Shown here: in pieces, positions 813 through 11,546 of the stretch
How the letters are laid out: each line of letters starts with the position of its first letter
How positions within the stretch are numbered: the first letter of the stretch is position 1
Source: Candidatus Baldrarchaeum yapensis
GTDB lineage: Archaea; Asgardarchaeota; Baldrarchaeia; Baldrarchaeales; Baldrarchaeaceae
DNA length: 12,955 nt
Assembly (NCBI GenBank): GCA_016840465.1
Contig: JAEOSH010000057.1
Coordinates: 1 to 12,955 of the forward strand
Direction of reading: 5' to 3'
Translations under genes and position numbers: made by a program
Notes under the pieces: model-generated
What the model was told of the DNA's origin: nothing
Seen by the model: only the letters and a program-made list of their open reading frames with translations
The model's database searches: none

Positions 813-2504
813 TTGCCGACAATACAGGTGTCCTATAAGGATTTATGTAATCTCATAGGAAAGTCTTTAAGTTTAGAGGAACTTGAGGACATAATCCTGC
901 TGGTGAAAGGAGAACTTGAGGATGCGACGCCGCAACCTGACGGAGATTACGAGCTAAGTATAGAGATAACGAGTGATAGACCCGATATGTTGTCAGCCGA
1001 GGGGCTTGCAAGAACAATAAAAGGCTTTCTCGAGATAGAACTCGGAATTCCAAAATATGAGGTTGCCCCGCCTAAGATTGTGGCTCGTGTTGATCGCTCA
1101 GTGCTCCCGGTGAGGCCATGCGTTGCATTTGCCGTTGTCAGAGGAATAAAATTCAACGATTACCTCATAAGACAGATAATGCAGCTTCAAGAGAAGCTTC
1201 ACGAGACTTACGGCCGAAAGCGAAGAAAGGTCTCCATAGGAATACATGACCTGGATAAGGTAAATCCCCCCTTCAAATACTTTGCTGAAGATCCTGATAA
1301 GATACGCTTCGTGCCGCTCGGGGAAACCAAGGAGATGAGCGGTAGGGAAATTCTGGAAAAACACCCCAAGGGTGTGACATACGGCCACATAATAAAGGAC
1401 TTCAACAGGTATCCTCTGATCATCGACAGAGACGGCAATGTGCTCTCAATGCCTCCGATAATAAACAGCATCGTCACACAAGTGACCGAACAAACACGTA
1501 ACCTTTTCATCGACGTTACTGGAACCGAATGGGACGCGGTACTCTATGCGCTCAATATAATCGTCACAAACCTCGCCGAGCGGGGAGGTAAAATAGAAGC
1601 GGTCCGCGTAGAGCATCCAGAGCGCTCCTTCGTGTCTCCTGACCTCTCCCTCAAGACTATGAATGTGAACATAGATTTCATAAACAAAATACTGGGGTAC
1701 CAGCTGGATGCTCCTCAGATAATAAGATGTCTAAAGAAGTGCCGATTAGACGCCGAACTTGTATCTGAGAATGAAATACGGGTCTATATACCCGCGTATC
1801 GGACCGATTTCCTGCATCCGGTCGATATCGCCGAGGAGGTGGCGATAGGTTTTGGTTATAACAGGATAGAACCAGAAACTCCACCAACTTTGACTTTTGG
1901 GAAGGAACTCGATGATGCAAAGTTCTGCAGAAAAATTCGTGATATTATGGTTGGGATGGGGTTCCAAGAGGTCTACTTCTATGTAATGTCGAGCGAGGAC
2001 ATACAGGTCCATAAAATGAACCTTCCTCGTCTCGAATTAGTGACAATTCTCAACCCTACATCTCAAGAATTCACCGTACTAAGGAGATGGCTATTACCCG
2101 GCTTATTGCTCATATTGAGCAGGAACTCCCATGTTCCACTACCACATAAAATATTTGAGGTCGGCGATGTTGTGGAGATAGATGAGAGTCTGGAGAACAA
2201 GACTAGGAACGTAAAACACGTGGCGGCGGTTATCAGCGATCATAGCACGAGTTATGAAGACATACAGGCAGTCGTGTACGCACTATTACGTTCGCTGGGA
2301 ATAGAGTTTAAGGTGCAAGCCTCTGAACATCCGAGTTTCATAAACGGCAGATGTGCAACAATACTGATCGGCGGAAAAGAAGCAGGGATCATGGGCGAAG
2401 TAAATCCGGAGGTTTTAATGAACTTTGGGATCGAAAACCCGACCACGGCATTTGAACTCGACATCGATGCGCTATTGGCATACTGGAAAGCAAATAAGAA
2501 GTAA
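813..2504 (+). CDS. pheT: Phenylalanyl-tRNA synthetase beta subunit (archaeal/eukaryotic type)
   Basis: 563 aa; DRPDMLSAEGLAR, QEKLHETYGRKR, GIHDLDK, LSMPPIINS, RTDFLHPVDIAEEVAIGFGYN, GEVNPEVL motifs. TTG start abuts the pheS stop; SD GAGGTGA at 801-807. Confidence 0.97.
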   Translation: MPTIQVSYKDLCNLIGKSLSLEELEDIILLVKGELEDATPQPDGDYELSIEITSDRPDMLSAEGLARTIKGFLEIELGIPKYEVAPPKIVARVDRSVLPVRPCVAFAVVRGIKFNDYLIRQIMQLQEKLHETYGRKRRKVSIGIHDLDKVNPPFKYFAEDPDKIRFVPLGETKEMSGREILEKHPKGVTYGHIIKDFNRYPLIIDRDGNVLSMPPIINSIVTQVTEQTRNLFIDVTGTEWDAVLYALNIIVTNLAERGGKIEAVRVEHPERSFVSPDLSLKTMNVNIDFINKILGYQLDAPQIIRCLKKCRLDAELVSENEIRVYIPAYRTDFLHPVDIAEEVAIGFGYNRIEPETPPTLTFGKELDDAKFCRKIRDIMVGMGFQEVYFYVMSSEDIQVHKMNLPRLELVTILNPTSQEFTVLRRWLLPGLLLILSRNSHVPLPHKIFEVGDVVEIDESLENKTRNVKHVAAVISDHSTSYEDIQAVVYALLRSLGIEFKVQASEHPSFINGRCATILIGGKEAGIMGEVNPEVLMNFGIENPTTAFELDIDALLAYWKANKK

Positions 2505-2804: not shown

Positions 2805-3308
2805 AGCATTCACCCCATGACCTCACGCATTCTAACATTTGTTGCTTACACTCAAGATCGAAATGTGACCTCTTTCCTTTATTAATCTACCGCACAAGAT
2901 TAGCGATAGTAGCTATTTACTACACATACCATCAACCATGATGGGTAGAATGTACTACTAATGAGGCTCATGCATCTTAGTGACCTTTTATAGCTATCAT
3001 CAATCCGTTCCCATATCAATACTTCTTATTACTCCTAGTGTATAGTTTTGCTTGTTTGTAAGCATAATTATCCGACCATATGCATGATGTCATGTCATTT
3101 CTCGATTTTTTCATTATTATAATCTAATATTCAAAGATGCGAAAAATTTAATGTAGAATATACGTCAATTACAATTTTTTCCGTAATATTTAATATAGTC
3201 GTGCAATAAATCCATTAAGCTATCAATTGGTGAATCATTATGTCATTAAGAAGGCATAAACCCCAAGTACCTTCTATTCGTAAACAAATCCATCATTATA
3301 ACTTGTGA

Positions 3309-3563
3309 TAACAACCATGTGACGGAAGTCTTCCGGACTCCCGTGGGGATCTTCCACGAGCAATGAGGTTGTTAAACCGTTCTGACTCTCCGCCACTTTT
3401 GTTGCAATTGACGCGTGCGTGGCGGAGAGCCTTCCCGTCTCGGGGTCCATCGACGGGCTTTCGCGGGGAGCGGTGCTCCGTACATCCATCTGACCCCCTT
3501 CGCTCCGCCCTTTCGGGCCTCCCTCCCTCTCACCGTCCCTCCCACATCCCGGGCGGAGCCCGC
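3309..3563 (-). ncRNA. Candidate structured ncRNA of unknown class (~255 nt)
   Basis: GC-rich island in AT-rich flanks. Stems: 3559-3551/3510-3502 (9 bp), 3479-3475/3471-3467, 3457-3452/3439-3434, 3429-3419/3396-3386 (11 bp), 3374-3367/3316-3309 (8 bp). GAAA tetraloops read on the minus strand; BRE/TATA is correctly placed upstream. Confidence 0.6.
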
Positions 3564-3581
3564 TTAACACAACAGAAGTCC

Positions 3582-3596
3582 TTTATAAGGGTTTTG
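3582..3596 (-). promoter_or_regulatory. Archaeal BRE-TATA promoter (CAAAACCC-TTATAAA) pointing into the GC-rich element
   Basis: Minus strand reads caaaacccTTATAAAggac; the GC-rich stem starts about 22-25 nt downstream of the TATA centre, the expected TSS spacing. Confidence 0.6.
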
Positions 3597-4273
3597 AGGT
3601 TGCAAAGGTGCATGAGGGCAGCAAATGCAACACTATACGTTTCTGCCTCAGCACAATGAAACATATTTCTGATGGAGGATATTACTACCGAAAGGAAGTT
3701 AACCCAAATTGTTACTTAGTTGTTGATAGAGGATAAGTATTGACATCTTGAATTCATAAACCCCGACTATAGCCGCGAATTTGCATTCACGGAGCCTAAT
3801 GGTCACACAGTAAAAAAGAATATCTATGAATACCATCCACGTGGGATATTTATTTGGTTACTGTAAAACTTTCCGGCCAGTATTACCGCTGGCATCCATA
3901 AAGGCTCGCATGGTAACTCCTCTAGCGATGGCCTTCTAACAGGCCAATATCAAGTATAACAGATGACATCACATTAATTAAGAAAATAATGCTTGAAAAT
4001 TCCGAAGATGTCCCCGTGACGGACAAATATGTGGCTACATGGAGGATTTTTGAAGTCGATAATGTTGTTAAGGATTAGAAGTAGTAAGTCTTGCCGCAAA
4101 AAAAGTATTGAGGAACATTGCCTTAAGAATTGAAATGGGAAAATCGTTCAAGGCGAGCGAGGAACAAATTAATATACTGATAAGCTAGTCATCATTGACA
4201 ATCCTTCATTATGCAACTTTCACAAATGAGTTCCAGCGCTTCAATCAGAATCCATACTTTGGAGAGTAGCAAT

Positions 4274-5245
4274 ATGACACATTATGAAAATGTTGTCGTC
4301 ACCGGAGGTGCAGGCTTTTTAGGTAGTCATCTCGTTGACAAACTCATTTTTCGGGGATGCAACGTCACGGTGATCGATAACTTGAGTTCAGGCAAAATCG
4401 ATAATTTGAGAGTCTCGCTTACCAGCGGGCGCCTCAGAGTCGTCATACAGGATCTAAAAAACGTGAATGATGAGTGGATGGCTGAATTTAAAAACAAGGA
4501 CGTAGTGTTTCATTTCGCTGCGAATCCAGAAGTTAGGGTTTCGGTTACCGACCCGCAAATTCACTTTGAGGAGAACCTTCGGGTGACTTTCAACGTGTTA
4601 GAAGCTATGCGAAAATGTGATGTGCCCCTTATAGTGTTCGCCTCCACAAGTACTGTTTACGGGGATGCGAAGAAGATCCCAACACCGGAGGATTATCATC
4701 CTCTGGAGCCGATTTCGGTGTATGGTGCAGTGAAGCTTGCGTGTGAGGTACTAATACAGACGTATTCAAAGCTTTATGGCATCAGGGGATTAATCCTGAG
4801 ATATGCGAATATCATCGGTGCTCGATCAACGCATGGGGTTATAGTCGATTTCATAAGAAAATTGAGGCATAATCCGAAAGAGCTTGAGATTCTCGGAGAT
4901 GGAACACAACGCAAAAGTTATCTGCACGTAAGCGATGCCGTGGACGCCACACTACACGCGCTTGACGTATTTGTGGAGGGCAGCCTTCCATGTGACGTTT
5001 ATAATATTGGGAGTGAAGATTGGATTTCGGTGAGGGAGATCGCGGACATAATCGTAGAGGAGATAGGACTGGAAAATGTAAAGTATGTTTACAAGCCCAT
5101 GACTGCGGATGGAAGAGGATGGCCCGGCGACGTGAAGTTCATGTTGCTGGATATCAGCAAAATAAAAGGGACGGGGTGGAAGCCAAGACTTAACAGCAGG
5201 GATGCTGTAAGAAAAACTGTCAGAGAATTATTGGGGAAAGAATGA
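4274..5245 (+). CDS. NAD-dependent epimerase/dehydratase (extended SDR, UDP-glucose 4-epimerase-like)
   Basis: VVVTGGAGFLGSH Rossmann motif, HFAANPEVR, FASTSTVYG, catalytic YGAVK (YxxxK), GDGTQRKSY. ATG 4274 with SD GGAGA at 4261-4265 is preferred over ORF start 4211. Confidence 0.93.
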   Translation: MTHYENVVVTGGAGFLGSHLVDKLIFRGCNVTVIDNLSSGKIDNLRVSLTSGRLRVVIQDLKNVNDEWMAEFKNKDVVFHFAANPEVRVSVTDPQIHFEENLRVTFNVLEAMRKCDVPLIVFASTSTVYGDAKKIPTPEDYHPLEPISVYGAVKLACEVLIQTYSKLYGIRGLILRYANIIGARSTHGVIVDFIRKLRHNPKELEILGDGTQRKSYLHVSDAVDATLHALDVFVEGSLPCDVYNIGSEDWISVREIADIIVEEIGLENVKYVYKPMTADGRGWPGDVKFMLLDISKIKGTGWKPRLNSRDAVRKTVRELLGKE

Positions 5246-5506: not shown

Positions 5507-6262
5507 TTATAGCAACAGAATTATTCCCATCATGAAGAGTAGTGCGGAGAGTGTATAGAGTATGTAGCGGTCTGGAATTTTATGGTTTATGAAGAAACCC
5601 ATTGTAACACCGGGTATCGATCCCATCAAAAGCGTGAGAACCAAGAATATGTCGACATTTCCAATGATTGCATGTATGATTGCGGCCAATGACGTGACTA
5701 CAAAACTGTACACCATGTCGGTGCCTACAATCTTTCCGCCCTTCTTCATGAAGCGAAGAAGAACAAGAGCGAGAATCGTTCCACTTCCGACAGATGTGAA
5801 CACCACAACCACTCCTATTAGGAATCCTACAAATACGAAAAACACCCAGTTATACTCCTGAGCACGATATAATCGCTCTTTCTTGTCATTTCCTCTATAC
5901 AATCTGATTATATGAAGAGTAGAAGTTAAGATGAGTATCGACGAGAGCAAGTACCTTATAACAAGGTTCACAATGGTAGATTGCATTATGGTTCGTAGAA
6001 TCAACGCACTAATCACAATGGACGGTATTGTTCCCATCAAGAGGGGAGCCACTATTTTGAATTCGACCTTCCTAGACTTCATGTAAAGTGATGAGCCCAC
6101 CCCTCTTGTTATCGACATGTAAAGAAGATCAGATCCCACTGCGCGTATTGGGGGAACTCCTAGTAGCATGAGAGCGGGTGTAAGGACAGCACCTCCTCCC
6201 ATTCCGCTAAGTCCTATTAACATTCCAATTACGAAACCTAAAAGTATGATAAGAGGGTTCAT
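5507..6262 (-). CDS. Sulfite exporter TauE/SafE family (TSUP) membrane protein
   Basis: Multi-pass hydrophobic protein with duplicated GLSGMGGGAVLTP / TSVGSGTI motifs and AVGSDL / IVGTD repeats; SD GGTGA. Confidence 0.9.
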   Translation of the reverse strand: MNPLIILLGFVIGMLIGLSGMGGGAVLTPALMLLGVPPIRAVGSDLLYMSITRGVGSSLYMKSRKVEFKIVAPLLMGTIPSIVISALILRTIMQSTIVNLVIRYLLSSILILTSTLHIIRLYRGNDKKERLYRAQEYNWVFFVFVGFLIGVVVVFTSVGSGTILALVLLRFMKKGGKIVGTDMVYSFVVTSLAAIIHAIIGNVDIFLVLTLLMGSIPGVTMGFFINHKIPDRYILYTLSALLFMMGIILLL

Positions 6263-6276
6263 GAGTTTTCACCGGA

Positions 6277-6819
6277 TTATTGTAAGCAACCAAGTTTGCG
6301 GAGCGTCTCCAATATTTTCCTAGAACACTCCTCGGGGTTCTCATGTTCTGTATCTACGATAACTTCCGGTTTTTCAGGCTCCTCATAGACGTCCTGTATC
6401 CCAGTCATGTTCTTTATTTCCCCACTGAGTGCCTTCTTATACAGTCCTTTCGGATCCCTGCGTATGCACTCCTCTAAGCTACATTTTACATACACTTCCA
6501 CGAATTTTAACCCCTCCTGCTCGATTATTCTCCTTGCTTCCTCTCTTATGCTCCGATAAGGAGAAACAAAGGACGCTACCACCGCAACGCCATTTCTCGC
6601 TAATAGCTTGGAAACGTATGCAACTCTTCTGAGGTGTCTTTCCCTGTCCTCCCTGCTAAAGCCCGCCTCGGGACTAAGCCACTTTCTTACCTCGTCCCCA
6701 TCTAAAAGTTCAACCTTTAGCCCCATTTCCTTAAGATGTCGCTCAAGGTGTCGAGCAATAGTGGTCTTACCGGATCCAGGCAGTCCCGTTAGCCATACGA
6801 CAAACCCCTTCTCCATCAT
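6277..6819 (-). CDS. cysC: Adenylyl-sulfate (APS) kinase
   Basis: WLTGLPGSGKTT P-loop, LLDGDEVR, GFSREDR, SFVSPY, RRDPKGLYKKA, MTGIQDVYEEP. SD GAGGAGG; ATG overlaps the upstream TGA. Confidence 0.96.
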   Translation of the reverse strand: MMEKGFVVWLTGLPGSGKTTIARHLERHLKEMGLKVELLDGDEVRKWLSPEAGFSREDRERHLRRVAYVSKLLARNGVAVVASFVSPYRSIREEARRIIEQEGLKFVEVYVKCSLEECIRRDPKGLYKKALSGEIKNMTGIQDVYEEPEKPEVIVDTEHENPEECSRKILETLRKLGCLQ

Positions 6820-8204
6820 AACACCTCCTCTATTACCCTCCCCTCCATTGTTGGTGGCACGGAGATCCCCATGAGTTTTAAAACCGTGGGCGCAATATCA
6901 AGGATATTCACATCCACCCTTCTACCGTTTAGGTTTCTACGAGGGTCAAAAAAGATGAAAATTCCATCATAGTCGTGCACCGCATCATCGGGTCCCGTGT
7001 CATTTTCCGGCAGATAAAGGGTATTATGACCTATTGTTCCGGCGGACCTCCAGTAAAGGTCATCAAAGTAGACCATTAGGTCCGGCGGCTCCCCCTTACA
7101 AACGGGGTATAATTCCTCGGGCTTAAAGACCTTAGTGTTCCACTTTTCGCCATTCGGTCCCCTTATATTCAGAATTTTCCGCTTCAGTTCCTCCCTAACG
7201 CGCTCATAGTCTTCCGGATCTACAACTCCACTCTTTTCTCTTCCCTTCACATTTATGAAAATCCTCGCATAGTACCCACCCCATCCCCATGCGATAGTAT
7301 TTTCCCAGTCGACATCCGCCTTTTCGAGATCTGTGACCTTTTCGGGCCGCTTCTTCAGCTTCAGGTACCCCTCCTTTATCAACCACTCATTTATGCAGAA
7401 AGCCCCCTTCATCCTCTTCGCACCATGATCTGATACCACAAAAACCACAGTGTCATCGTCTATCAGCGATAGTATTTCTCCCACTTCTCGGTCGAGGTAC
7501 TTGTAGTAGTCCCTGATCACGTTTTCGTACTTCGTCCCCGGCTGGTAGAGATGATGCTCCTTATCAAAGAACTTCCAGAAGGCGTGTTGTATCCTGTCGA
7601 GACCTATCTCGACAAACATGAAGAAATCCCAGGGCTTCTCTGTCAGAAGGTACTTTATCACCTTAAACCTCTTCTCCGTCATTTCATATATTTCCCTTAG
7701 CACGGCATCCCTATCTTCTCGCCTGAAGGGCACATCTATTATGTACTCGCCCACTAGCCGCTCTATCTCCTCCTTAAGTTCTGGCGGATACGTGTACTCC
7801 CTCTTAGTGTCAGGAGTCATGAGGCAGGAAATCAGCCATCCATTGACGCGAGGCGGCGGATATGTTGGTGGGACACCAACGAGACAGACCTTCCTTCCTC
7901 TCTCACCTATGTAGTCCCATATCTTTTTCACTTTTATCGACCGAGATGATGGTAGAGATATCTCCGTGTACGAGTACCTCTTCCTGTGCCTAAACCCATA
8001 GAGCCCCAATCTTCCTGGATTAACACTCGTAACCATGACTATCCACGCAGGTATCGTTATAGGAGGATCGCAGGATCTCAATTTTCCATATGCTCCCCTC
8101 TCTATCAGCTCCCTCAGGTTCGGGAGATCTTCCCTGAATTGCTCGAAGACAAGTTGCGGAGCTGCGGCATCTAACCCGATTATCAAAACTTTCCTTCCAT
8201 TCAA
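6816..8204 (-). CDS. Alkaline phosphatase superfamily protein (type I phosphodiesterase / nucleotide pyrophosphatase-like)
   Basis: IIGLD first metal ligand, PPITIPAW (Thr nucleophile position), GLDRIQH, VSDHG, DDAVH, DIAPTVL. TTG at 8204 follows SD AAGGAGGT and is preferred over ORF start 8246, which overlaps sat. Confidence 0.9.
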   Translation of the reverse strand: MNGRKVLIIGLDAAAPQLVFEQFREDLPNLRELIERGAYGKLRSCDPPITIPAWIVMVTSVNPGRLGLYGFRHRKRYSYTEISLPSSRSIKVKKIWDYIGERGRKVCLVGVPPTYPPPRVNGWLISCLMTPDTKREYTYPPELKEEIERLVGEYIIDVPFRREDRDAVLREIYEMTEKRFKVIKYLLTEKPWDFFMFVEIGLDRIQHAFWKFFDKEHHLYQPGTKYENVIRDYYKYLDREVGEILSLIDDDTVVFVVSDHGAKRMKGAFCINEWLIKEGYLKLKKRPEKVTDLEKADVDWENTIAWGWGGYYARIFINVKGREKSGVVDPEDYERVREELKRKILNIRGPNGEKWNTKVFKPEELYPVCKGEPPDLMVYFDDLYWRSAGTIGHNTLYLPENDTGPDDAVHDYDGIFIFFDPRRNLNGRRVDVNILDIAPTVLKLMGISVPPTMEGRVIEEVL

Positions 8205-8223
8205 GATATGAACCTCCTTTCGG

Positions 8224-9372
8224 TCACTCCACAAATGGGTTTTCAAATTGGAAAATAGCCTCCGCCACCTCAGGCCTCATGAACTCTGGTGGCGGCGTTT
8301 TGCCGCTCCTTATCATCTCCCTAATCTTTGTTCCACTAAACCGCAACCTAAAGGACTCATCATGAGGGCACACTCTCTCATTGACAATTGCACCACACTT
8401 TCTGCAGTAAAAGAACTCTCTGAAGAAGAGAGGGGTTATCCCCAGATCCGGAAACTCCTTGAATATTTCCTGTGCCTCGTAAGGACCGTAGTAGTTTCCA
8501 ACCCCCGCGTGATCACGCCCAACTATAAAGTGCGTACACCCAAAGTTCTTCCTCATGATCGCATGATGAATAGCCTCCCGGGGACCCGCATACCGCATCT
8601 CATAACGCACTATACTCAAAACCGCAGACTCCCGGGGGTAATAATTTCTAAGGAGAACCTCGTAGGCCGATAGTATAACATCGTCCCTAAAATCGCCGCG
8701 CTTTTTCCTACCTATAACCGGATTTATGAAAAGACCATCCACGAAAACGAGTGCTGACTTCTGAAGGTACTCATGACCAAGATGAGGAACATTTCTTGTC
8801 TGAAATCCAACTACGGTCTTCCATCCCCTCTCCCTGAACAGCACCCGCGTCTCAACCGGCCTTAATGTGTATCTTTCAAAGGGGTTCGGTGGATCATTAA
8901 TGAGATCAACTCTGCCGCCGATCAAGTATTTTCCCATGGAGAAAACCTTCGCAACACCGGGATGTGCGAGATCTGTTGTCTTAAACACGCATCTCGCAAA
9001 TCTTTCCTTGTCATATACGTAAATCTCCTCAACATGCAACACTGCAACTGGAATGTCTTCATAATACAGCATCACATCGTCACCGGGCTCTATTCTTGCC
9101 GCGGTTTTCTCATCAATGTCTAGCACTATCGGAATCGTCCACGGAAGATCATTTGGCAGACGCATGTCATCTAGAACGCTCAGAAACTCCTCTTCTAACA
9201 TGAAACCCTCAAGTGGACTGTATACACCGTAAGCTATGTTCTCGGCATCGAATGCCCTTCCCTGATCAATATTCAACCTTTCGAACTCGTCTACCTCCTC
9301 CAATATTCTCTCTCGCCTCTTGGACGCAAGCACCCTGTTGACAAGCCTACCTCCATGTGGCCTCGATATCAT
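8224..9372 (-). CDS. sat: Sulfate adenylyltransferase (ATP sulfurylase)
   Basis: PHGGRLVNR, YSPLEGFM, FQTRNVPHLGHE (QxRN/HxGH), MRYAGPREA, CTHFIVGRDHAGVG, SGTKIR. ATG 9372 with SD GGGGTG. Confidence 0.97.
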   Translation of the reverse strand: MISRPHGGRLVNRVLASKRRERILEEVDEFERLNIDQGRAFDAENIAYGVYSPLEGFMLEEEFLSVLDDMRLPNDLPWTIPIVLDIDEKTAARIEPGDDVMLYYEDIPVAVLHVEEIYVYDKERFARCVFKTTDLAHPGVAKVFSMGKYLIGGRVDLINDPPNPFERYTLRPVETRVLFRERGWKTVVGFQTRNVPHLGHEYLQKSALVFVDGLFINPVIGRKKRGDFRDDVILSAYEVLLRNYYPRESAVLSIVRYEMRYAGPREAIHHAIMRKNFGCTHFIVGRDHAGVGNYYGPYEAQEIFKEFPDLGITPLFFREFFYCRKCGAIVNERVCPHDESFRLRFSGTKIREMIRSGKTPPPEFMRPEVAEAIFQFENPFVE

Positions 9373-9383
9373 ATTACACACCC

Positions 9384-9862: not shown

Positions 9863-9940
9863 TGGTGCGGCCGCCGGGATTTGAACCCGGGTTACCGGCT
9901 CGGAAGGCCGGTGTCCTAGTCCAGGCTAGACGACGGCCGC
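9863..9940 (-). tRNA. tRNA-Gly(TCC), intronless, CCA encoded
   Basis: GCGGCCG acceptor stem, D arm, anticodon arm CCGGC-CTTCCGA-GCCGG, T arm CCGGG-TTCAAAT-CCCGG, ACCA end; 78 nt. Confidence 0.97.
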
Positions 9941-10440: not shown

Positions 10441-11484
10441 TCACGTTGATGCATATCCTCCGTATTTGAATTCTATTTCTCTGTTCAGTATCTGGCAGGC
10501 GAGTGTGGACTTCTGATAGGCTCTTTCCATCTCGATTTCACAATTCCGTCCATATAACGTAATTATGATTTTGTTTTCGAGGGGTTGCACAGATATTTCC
10601 TCTACATTTTGCTCTTGTGAGTAGTCCAAGGCATCGGATATTCTTAATAGTGCTGACAGTTTTACTATAGTGTCCTTGAATTCCTCCTGAAGTTTATTAT
10701 TCTCACGGGGGTCTCCCGCCTTTGTACGGTGATACAATGCGACCCATTTGATAATTTCCACATCTGATGAGGACAGCACTCCTTTTATCGTTTCTTTCTC
10801 CTTTTCTATTAGGTTAAAAGTATGGATGTGGTGATGTGCTTCATCCACTTGGACTCCTATATCGTGGAGGACGGACGCAAATATTAGATGTCTTAAGGTG
10901 TCCTCTTTCAAATCGAGTTGTGCTTTTAATCCGTCAAACAGCATAATTGAGAGTTCAGCAACTCTAGCCGCATGCTCTATGCCTCTTCCGTAGTTATACT
11001 TTTCAGCAAGCTGAAGCACCGTTTCTATTTCGCGAGATTGAGCGACTGATATGAGCCTCTCGAAGAGTTGCAGCGTTCTTTCCTGCTTCCAAGATTCAGG
11101 AAACAGCAAGATGTCCTTTGCCACCTCATCACACGCCTCTTCGAAACTCTTTTTTCCGAAAAGCATGAGGTATGCTGCGGCAATTGTTCTACTCCTGCCA
11201 ATTCCGCCGTGACAGTGTACAAGCACCTTCTTCTTGTTTCTTATTTTATCAGCAATCCACGAAACTATCTTATAGAGCTGTAGCAGGTTGGGGGCTCCAA
11301 AATCAGGCACTGGAGTATGGAGCACTTCGACTCCATGTTTTTTCCACAGTATTGGGTCATATGTGAGTTCATAGGGCTGCACTAGGATGATCACAGCATC
11401 GAATTCTTCCGAGAGGGATGGAATCTCGCGCTTGGATGGTTGAGGGGAAGTTGCAAGTTTACCCTTTATTATCCAGTTGCACAT
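10441..11484 (-). CDS. Fusion: N-terminal Cys-based dual-specificity/PTP-like phosphatase + C-terminal Ppx/GppA-type HD domain
   Basis: PVPDFGAP acid loop and VHCHGGIGRS (CX5R) in the N half; HAARVAELS, LHDIG, HHHIH, ALYHR, LRISDALD in the C half. ATG 11484 follows SD GAAGGTGA (ORF track start 11502). Confidence 0.85.
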   Translation of the reverse strand: MCNWIIKGKLATSPQPSKREIPSLSEEFDAVIILVQPYELTYDPILWKKHGVEVLHTPVPDFGAPNLLQLYKIVSWIADKIRNKKKVLVHCHGGIGRSRTIAAAYLMLFGKKSFEEACDEVAKDILLFPESWKQERTLQLFERLISVAQSREIETVLQLAEKYNYGRGIEHAARVAELSIMLFDGLKAQLDLKEDTLRHLIFASVLHDIGVQVDEAHHHIHTFNLIEKEKETIKGVLSSSDVEIIKWVALYHRTKAGDPRENNKLQEEFKDTIVKLSALLRISDALDYSQEQNVEEISVQPLENKIIITLYGRNCEIEMERAYQKSTLACQILNREIEFKYGGYAST

Positions 11485-11546
11485 TTGTATCATCACCTTC
11501 ACTGTTAGGGGGTCTTAAACGTTGTAGGGCGCACGTTATATTGGGG

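Follow-up and report, generated by a model that had tools for sequence, protein, structure and literature searches.

The locus

The window, that is, the whole 12,955-nucleotide stretch of Candidatus Baldrarchaeum yapensis DNA analysed here (contig JAEOSH010000057.1 of assembly GCA_016840465.1, a genome of 2.27 Mb in 100 contigs), holds a series of protein genes and a tRNA-Gly(TCC) gene, the sole RNA gene found in it by RNA searches with Rfam (Table 1). The feature of interest lies between the divergent histone and epimerase genes, in a spacer of 1.4 kb, where GC content reaches 0.55–0.64 across positions 3300–3600 in comparison with 0.25–0.41 in the flanks. A preliminary description of this DNA had noticed the same GC-rich island in AT-rich DNA, which the composition bears out, and had proposed for positions 3309–3596 a promoter-led, structured and undescribed RNA of ~255 nt, read from the minus strand and linked to the histone gene.

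Table 1. Genes and features of the window, ordered by position
Feature	Position	Strand	Remarks
Phe-tRNA synthetase beta	813–2504		context gene
Archaeal histone	2580–2813	minus	context gene; same strand as the element RNA
8-bp stem closing two hairpins (preliminary description)	3309–3374	minus	flanking DNA outside the element; no repeat elsewhere in the genome
Predicted guide segment, UUUAACAACCUCAUUGCUCG	3357–3376	minus	unique flank; every copy diverges here; role by analogy with TnpB omegaRNAs
Mini-element as a whole, very probably non-autonomous and of the IS607 family	3377–3646	minus	left end, promoter, omegaRNA scaffold and right end; blastn copies
Scaffold 3′ tail AGAACGG, the transposon right end	3377–3383	minus	closes in the GG core dinucleotide; nearly invariant in copies and tnpB-linked homologs
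Helix H4, 13 bp	3384–3431	minus	3431–3419 with 3396–3384; covariation
Hairpin H3, CCCGUC/GACGGG, 6 bp	3434–3457	minus	3457–3452 with 3439–3434; covariation
Hairpin H2, ACC loop	3464–3480	minus	3480–3475 with 3471–3464; covariation
Helix P1, 9 bp	3502–3559	minus	3559–3551 with 3510–3502; inner helix 3544–3541/3517–3514; RNAalifold on mini-element copies
BRE/TATA-like promoter, TTATAAA at 3588–3582	3581–3596	minus	read from sequence; predicted start ~3563–3558
Transposon left end, GCAGAAACGTATAGTGTTGCA..., ~48 bp	3599–3646	minus	homologous to the C96 left end just upstream of tnpA
Left-junction motif GAG	3647–3649	minus	last two bases at the expected IS607 core dinucleotide; TAM-like, adjoins the left end
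NAD-dependent epimerase/dehydratase	4211–5245		context gene
TauE exporter	5507–6262		context gene
Type I phosphodiesterase	6816–8246		context gene
ATP sulfurylase	8224–9381		context gene
tRNA-Gly(TCC)	9863–9940		sole RNA gene found by RNA searches (Rfam)
Dual-specificity phosphatase fused to an HD/Ppx-GppA-III domain	10441–11502		context gene

A repeat with sharp ends

Comparison of the window with its own genome by blastn revealed that positions 3646–3377 of the minus strand are one copy of a 270-bp repeat, which occurs in 10 complete copies, in two more cut by contig ends (C57 and C80) and in at least four diverged or rearranged forms (on C75, twice on C76, and as a second one on C82). The complete copies, on contigs C11, C39, C71, C69, C82, C92, C28, C27, C55 and C89, are 88–97% identical to the window copy. 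With a longer blastn query the common unit ran from window position 3647 to about 3375, and an alignment that included the flanks showed that every copy begins [GG]GCAGAAACGTATAGTGTTGCA and stops at GGCGGAGAGTCAGAACGG, the sequences outside being unrelated. The ends are sharp on all aligned copies, whose final common bases, ...CAGAACGG, are followed at once by divergence.

The same picture was obtained from the contigs of four DNA metagenomes from four studies, in which contigs carrying the flanks of the window stop inside the repeat, the summed depth, taken bin by bin, rises in the repeat to roughly 2–25 times the flank value, and loose contig ends with many different sequences start at 3375/3376. 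Because of the sharp copy ends and these contig breaks, the unit was placed at 3646–3377 (270 bp). The interval first delimited, 3309–3596, is therefore not the unit itself, which reaches upstream to 3646 and is multi-copy. No contig joining 3377 to 3647, as expected of an empty site, was present in the four metagenomes, a null result of little weight since contigs drop rare variants, and we infer recent mobility only from the copies that are 94–98% identical in different contexts.

Some copies have peculiarities of their own. Identical sequence precedes the left end in two of them (C39:1-27 and C69:3438-3465), which lie in a larger duplicated segment or nested repeat. The stretch C82:5705-5959 (+) has the left and right ends of the family around a different interior, and at C76:22490-22537 (+) a left-end fragment stands alone, followed 1.7 kb downstream by the internally deleted copy C76:24217-24415.

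Kinship with an IS607-family element

One of the repeat matches lies directly downstream of a TnpB zinc-ribbon domain, which a Pfam search of the genome located at C96:27695-27886. The surrounding locus is an intact IS607-family element made up of a left end (GG followed by GCTGAAACGTATAGTGTTGCATTCG...), a 203-aa TnpA with MerR-HTH and Resolvase domains (PF00239 at 91.7 bits; PF12728 was also matched in the element), a TnpB (P0001; PF07282, 76.9 bits) and a right end finishing in ...GGCGGAGAGTCAGAACGG. Direct reading of P0001 shows the D, E and D motifs of RuvC (GVDVN, ALESL and ADRDV). According to tblastn this is the sole cognate tnpB in the assembly, and three other IS607-type tnpA/tnpB pairs of the genome belong to more distant lineages. 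These more distant pairs, three or four in number, were seen at C96:32153-33800 (-), C55:21079-23568 (+), C23:735-2628 (+) and C88:4564-5293, with 27–53% identity to the C96 proteins and, in some cases, internal stops.

This autonomous relative, with its MerR-HTH serine recombinase and its TnpB, has both ends in common with the short form. Besides C96, the left end of the mini-element is homologous to those of loci L026, L035 and L048, and the stretch 3563–3377 is homologous to the 3′ end of the C96 tnpB. In a global alignment, the window RNA (3566–3377) and the last 285 nt of the C96 element are 84% identical, the alignment starting in the CPICG codons and the window form showing a 12-nt insertion and a ~75-nt deletion. 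An alternative placement of the 5′ half of the RNA on the second CxxC of tnpB, suggested by MAFFT and tblastn, was rejected, the CPxCG placement giving 84% identity and preserving helix P1.

The junctions of most copies resemble those known for this family. All copies finish in GG (ACGG) at the right end; at the left junction 12 of 15 have GG, and a left-flank motif NNGGG is found in 11 of 15, with TGG at C96 and GAG at the window copy. IS607 TnpA requires a GG core dinucleotide, and the IS607 element of Clostridium botulinum targets TGGG, which is also the TAM of its TnpB, and has an omegaRNA scaffold that ends in UCGG (10.1101/2023.11.20.567912), while other IS607 TnpBs use AGGAG or GAGGG (PMC11061315). 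The GG right ends and NNGGG left flanks match this GG core, the TGGG and GAGGG TAMs and the UCGG scaffold end described in the literature. In the window copy, on the other hand, the left junction is AG (3648–3647) and the right core is GG. Because of this mismatch of core positions, and in light of the cited excision data, the copy may no longer excise, and the site that it would vacate may lack a TAM.

The tnpB frame of several full-length elements (L020:435-1721, which is the C96 element, L026, L043, L056 and L062) stays open across the entire omegaRNA scaffold, reaching the right end or passing it, and takes its stop codon from flanking DNA, 4 to 121 nt beyond the element, so that the scaffold doubles as coding sequence for the conserved tail of TnpB; in other full-length elements the tnpB stop lies 5 to 152 nt before the end. 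Open frames of 50–98 codons are also present within the mini-element, at 3274-3570 (-), 3363-3659 (+), 3372-3545 (-) and 3415-3567 (+). They are by-products of composition and tnpB ancestry, not genes, and automatic annotation may call them.

Structure of the RNA

The secondary structure was read from two sets of sequences, namely the mini-element copies, which yielded P1 by RNAalifold, and an alignment (A2) of 12 mini-element and 11 tnpB-linked sequences over their 3′-terminal 120 nt, on which the three-hairpin structure of H2, H3 and H4 comprises 25 pairs with 94.9% of cells paired and double changes in 13 of the pairs. None of 500 shuffles reached as high a value, and slid controls were 38–51% paired. 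In H2, 11 sequences have C-G at pair 25-46 and 10 have G-C; H3 has changes on both sides in 4 of its 6 pairs, and H4 in 7 of 12 counted pairs, with 94.5% of its cells paired. The folding z-score was modest (−2.0 to −2.5). A closing helix CCG/CGG between the 3′ side of H2 and the 3′ end of the scaffold, which RNAalifold returned for the mini-element copies alone, was discarded: it clashes with the covarying register of H2 and is not kept in the tnpB-linked homologs.

As for P1, the global alignment to C96 derives it from the tnpB codons for the CPxCG...NGxR segment of the zinc ribbon, and between the window-type copies and the related copy in another genome (G003, see below) it shows three double compensatory changes. 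In full-length tnpB loci it covaries as a 9–10-bp stem (CUCUGCCC/GGGCAGAG, CUAUGCCC/GGGCAUAG and GGUGCCC/GGGCACC). Across the ~95 columns between P1 and H2 of the full-length RNAs, RNAalifold found no conserved helix; since the ~75 nt missing from the mini-element fall in this helix-free stretch, the short form keeps every conserved helix. In addition, the minus strand is set as the RNA strand, as originally proposed, by conserved G-U pairs (for instance G3430-U3385), in whose place the plus strand would have A-C mismatches.

The chain of helices in the preliminary description stood the comparison in its larger part, its 9-, 5-, 6- and 11-bp stems (the last now 13 bp) all being backed by covariation. 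Its final 8-bp stem with two hairpins (3374–3367/3316–3309) falls in unique flank, with a z-score of −2.06 and 7 of 200 shuffles as good. Given that the conserved unit ends at 3377, the structured RNA is a scaffold of ~187 nt with a flank-derived tail, and not the 255-nt structure initially suggested.

Identity of the RNA

A covariance model, R1, was built from the 3′ module in alignment A2. Of 36 archaeal tnpB loci examined with it, 34 have a same-strand match at the tnpB 3′ end. Among its 22 matches in the genome of the window, only the one at C96 adjoins its cognate tnpB. Homologs of the P0001 TnpB were found in metagenome-assembled genomes of Bathyarchaeia, other Thermoproteota, Archaeoglobi, Thermococci and Asgard archaea, one such locus lying on a contig of Candidatus Asgardarchaeum abyssi (G008). 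Because R1 matches the tnpB 3′ end in 34 of the 36 loci, the RNA of the GC-rich island is, as far as its sequence tells, the scaffold of a TnpB omegaRNA (reRNA) in a stand-alone form, the window copy being devoid of tnpB.

Rfam covariance models gave no match to the island, either at gathering thresholds or at E ≤ 10 over positions 3150–3750, in agreement with the expectation of an RNA gene candidate outside the Rfam families. RNase P RNA and SRP RNA could be set aside, as they had been in the preliminary description, since both are present elsewhere in the genome (on C59 and C56, respectively), and a group II intron, a CRISPR leader or tracrRNA, and an IS110 bridge RNA were dropped after the link with tnpB was found. 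The RNA family is absent from Rfam, so that annotators keep meeting an orphan GC island, a situation that model R1 could fix.

Predicted promoter and mini-forms in other Asgard genomes

The near-consensus BRE/TATA originally reported stands at 3596–3581, and its TATA box (TTATAAAGG) recurs in every mini-element copy, even in the diverged ones on C75 and C76. It is also kept in the mini-element of G003, a genome of the same order and another genus, whereas a BRE/TATA at this position is absent from full-length elements. Altogether, these data support a promoter-led, structured RNA gene candidate on the minus strand.

The RNA detected by R1 occurs in 19 of the 151 Asgard genomes searched, with up to 22 matches per genome. 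Ten loci were inspected outside the genome of the window, five of them tnpB-less mini-forms (in G001, G003, G004, G063 and G069) and five tnpB-linked. Although only 67% identical overall, the mini-element of G003 has the same architecture and TATA box, and its P1, H3 and H4 are preserved by compensatory changes (three double ones in P1 and several more in H3 and H4). The preservation of the TATA box and the pairing at such a distance is evidence, at the level of sequence comparison, that the mini-form may be more than debris. We also observed 11–22 copies of related tnpB-less mini-forms in the genomes of loci L078 (G069:C40) and L079 (G063:C14); these have upstream parts of another kind and TATA-like boxes, and many lie at contig ends.

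Alternative explanations

In light of these data, the stretch 3646–3377 of the minus strand is, with high probability, a protein-less mini-derivative of an IS607 element, in which the left end is joined to a BRE/TATA promoter and to a shortened tnpB 3′ end, the omegaRNA scaffold, that runs to ...CAGAACGG. A first alternative would see in it an inert relic, that is, a product of deletion in which the 3′ end of tnpB survives only as subterminal right-end DNA needed by the serine recombinase, with inherited folds, a fortuitous TATA box and no functional RNA. The mismatched left junction of the window copy would suit such a relic, and the copies are young enough (88–98% identical) for a structure to persist in this genome without selection. 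However, the G003 copy, at 67% identity, still has the TATA box and an identical deletion architecture, mini-forms are multi-copy in several Asgard genera, and the double compensatory changes in P1, H3 and H4 are what selection on RNA pairing, and not on protein-binding DNA, would be expected to leave, so that the relic is an improbable reading.

Much less credit can be given to a mobile promoter or regulatory cassette, whose transcripts would read through from the element towards the histone gene, ~560 nt downstream on the same strand. The promoter does point at that gene (2813–2580), and no strong oligo-T stretch comes directly after the guide; yet the other copies lie beside unrelated sequences and in both orientations, and nothing suggests selection for the placement in the window, which makes this a very unlikely role, although one compatible with the mini-element explanation, which it does not exclude. 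The link with the histone gene has accordingly been abandoned, the position being an insertion site and the other copies having unrelated neighbours.

Finally, the opinion that this is a new, host-encoded structural RNA family unrelated to mobile elements, which the lack of an Rfam match and the strong covariation could favour, is scarcely tenable for an RNA that is multi-copy with transposon ends, homologous to the 3′ end of tnpB and tied to tnpB in 34 of 36 loci. Compensatory changes are abundant among its homologs, and they support an omegaRNA and not a new family. What had been taken for an undescribed non-coding RNA belongs to a copy of a multi-copy IS607 mini-element, and has its homologs among the TnpB omegaRNAs, which are guide RNAs of an established kind. 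A false “new ncRNA” is thereby removed, and guide-RNA-only mini-transposons of the IS607 type with a promoter of their own are documented in Asgard archaea.

Comparison with known systems

The C96 parent has the same gene order as the IStron of C. botulinum (10.1101/2023.11.20.567912) and the TnpB/reRNA element ISFba1 (PMC11061315). In IS607 elements with tnpA, tnpB and omegaRNA, the scaffold overlaps the 3′ end of tnpB and stops at a right end ...CGG, as observed here, and the GG at both junctions (on the left, in 12 of 15 copies and not in that of the window), the G-rich motif (NNGGG) by the left end and a predicted guide taken from the flank recur in the present family. Unlike those elements, the window copy is devoid of tnpA, of tnpB and of a group I intron, belongs to an Asgard host, and has a predicted archaeal TATA promoter of its own instead of depending on processing from a tnpB mRNA. 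The window RNA matched neither RAGATH-18, HEARO nor any other Rfam model (E ≤ 10).

Stand-alone, mobilised omegaRNAs that act in trans have been described for OMEGA systems (Altae-Tran 2021, as summarised in PMC10691335), and the PATEs of IS200/IS605 often encode omegaRNAs (Meers et al., PMC10055086). These are likewise effector-less, mobilised guide-RNA loci that coexist with a compatible TnpB borne by the genome, and for which action in trans is expected. They are mostly bacterial and of the IS605 type, with a Y1 transposase and hairpin ends, whereas the mini-element of the window is of the IS607 type (serine recombinase and GG core), with a dedicated promoter and a naturally shortened scaffold. 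Stand-alone omegaRNAs are thus already described, and what is presented here is an IS607-type archaeal case with its own promoter and a shortened scaffold, from a family absent from Rfam. The mini-elements outnumber the cognate tnpB by at least 12 to 1, and by about 16 to 1 when diverged copies are included.

Like MITEs, the mini-elements are short, lack coding capacity, occur in many copies and derive from an autonomous insertion sequence. The marks of a strict MITE were not found in the aligned copy flanks, which showed neither terminal inverted repeats nor a target-site duplication at the ends GCAGAAACG... and ...CAGAACGG; unlike those of strict MITEs, the ends of the mini-element are the asymmetric left and right ends of IS607. 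The natural deletion of the mini-element marks a part of the omegaRNA without a conserved helix, and may hint at how to shorten the guide scaffolds of TnpB.

Possible mode of action

If the mini-element works as its parts suggest, transcription from the internal promoter would start near 3563–3558, as predicted from the TATA box, and would yield the ~187-nt scaffold, reading on into the flank to a predicted 3′ end. By analogy with TnpB omegaRNAs, ~16–20 nt from 3376 downwards would act as the guide. The single cognate TnpB, that of C96, might load the mini-element RNA in trans, although the two scaffolds are only 83–84% identical and the mini-form lacks ~75 nt. As in IS607/IS605 systems, this TnpB would cut the vacated site, made up of the G-rich TAM and the flank, after which recombination would restore the element and so lead to its retention. 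Movement of the mini-element would in turn depend on the TnpA of the full-length element, acting at the GG core dinucleotides.

A more speculative extension, which we regard as doubtful, is that the promoter-bearing mini-elements supply one TnpB with a scattered set of naturally shortened guide RNAs acting in trans, through which that nuclease would reach a dozen or more loci and possibly near-matching host sites, the scaffold shorter by ~75 nt being a functional minimal omegaRNA. A single post-hoc lead in this regard is a near match of the guide at C89:88749 (C89:88744-88768 (+)), which could be a trans target or due to chance. It agrees at 17 of 20 positions, with the first 10 bases identical, and is located directly behind GAGGG; a GGG-flanked match with up to three mismatches was obtained in only 3% of shuffled guide sets. 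The site falls at the 3′ end of a small winged-helix-like open reading frame on the other strand.
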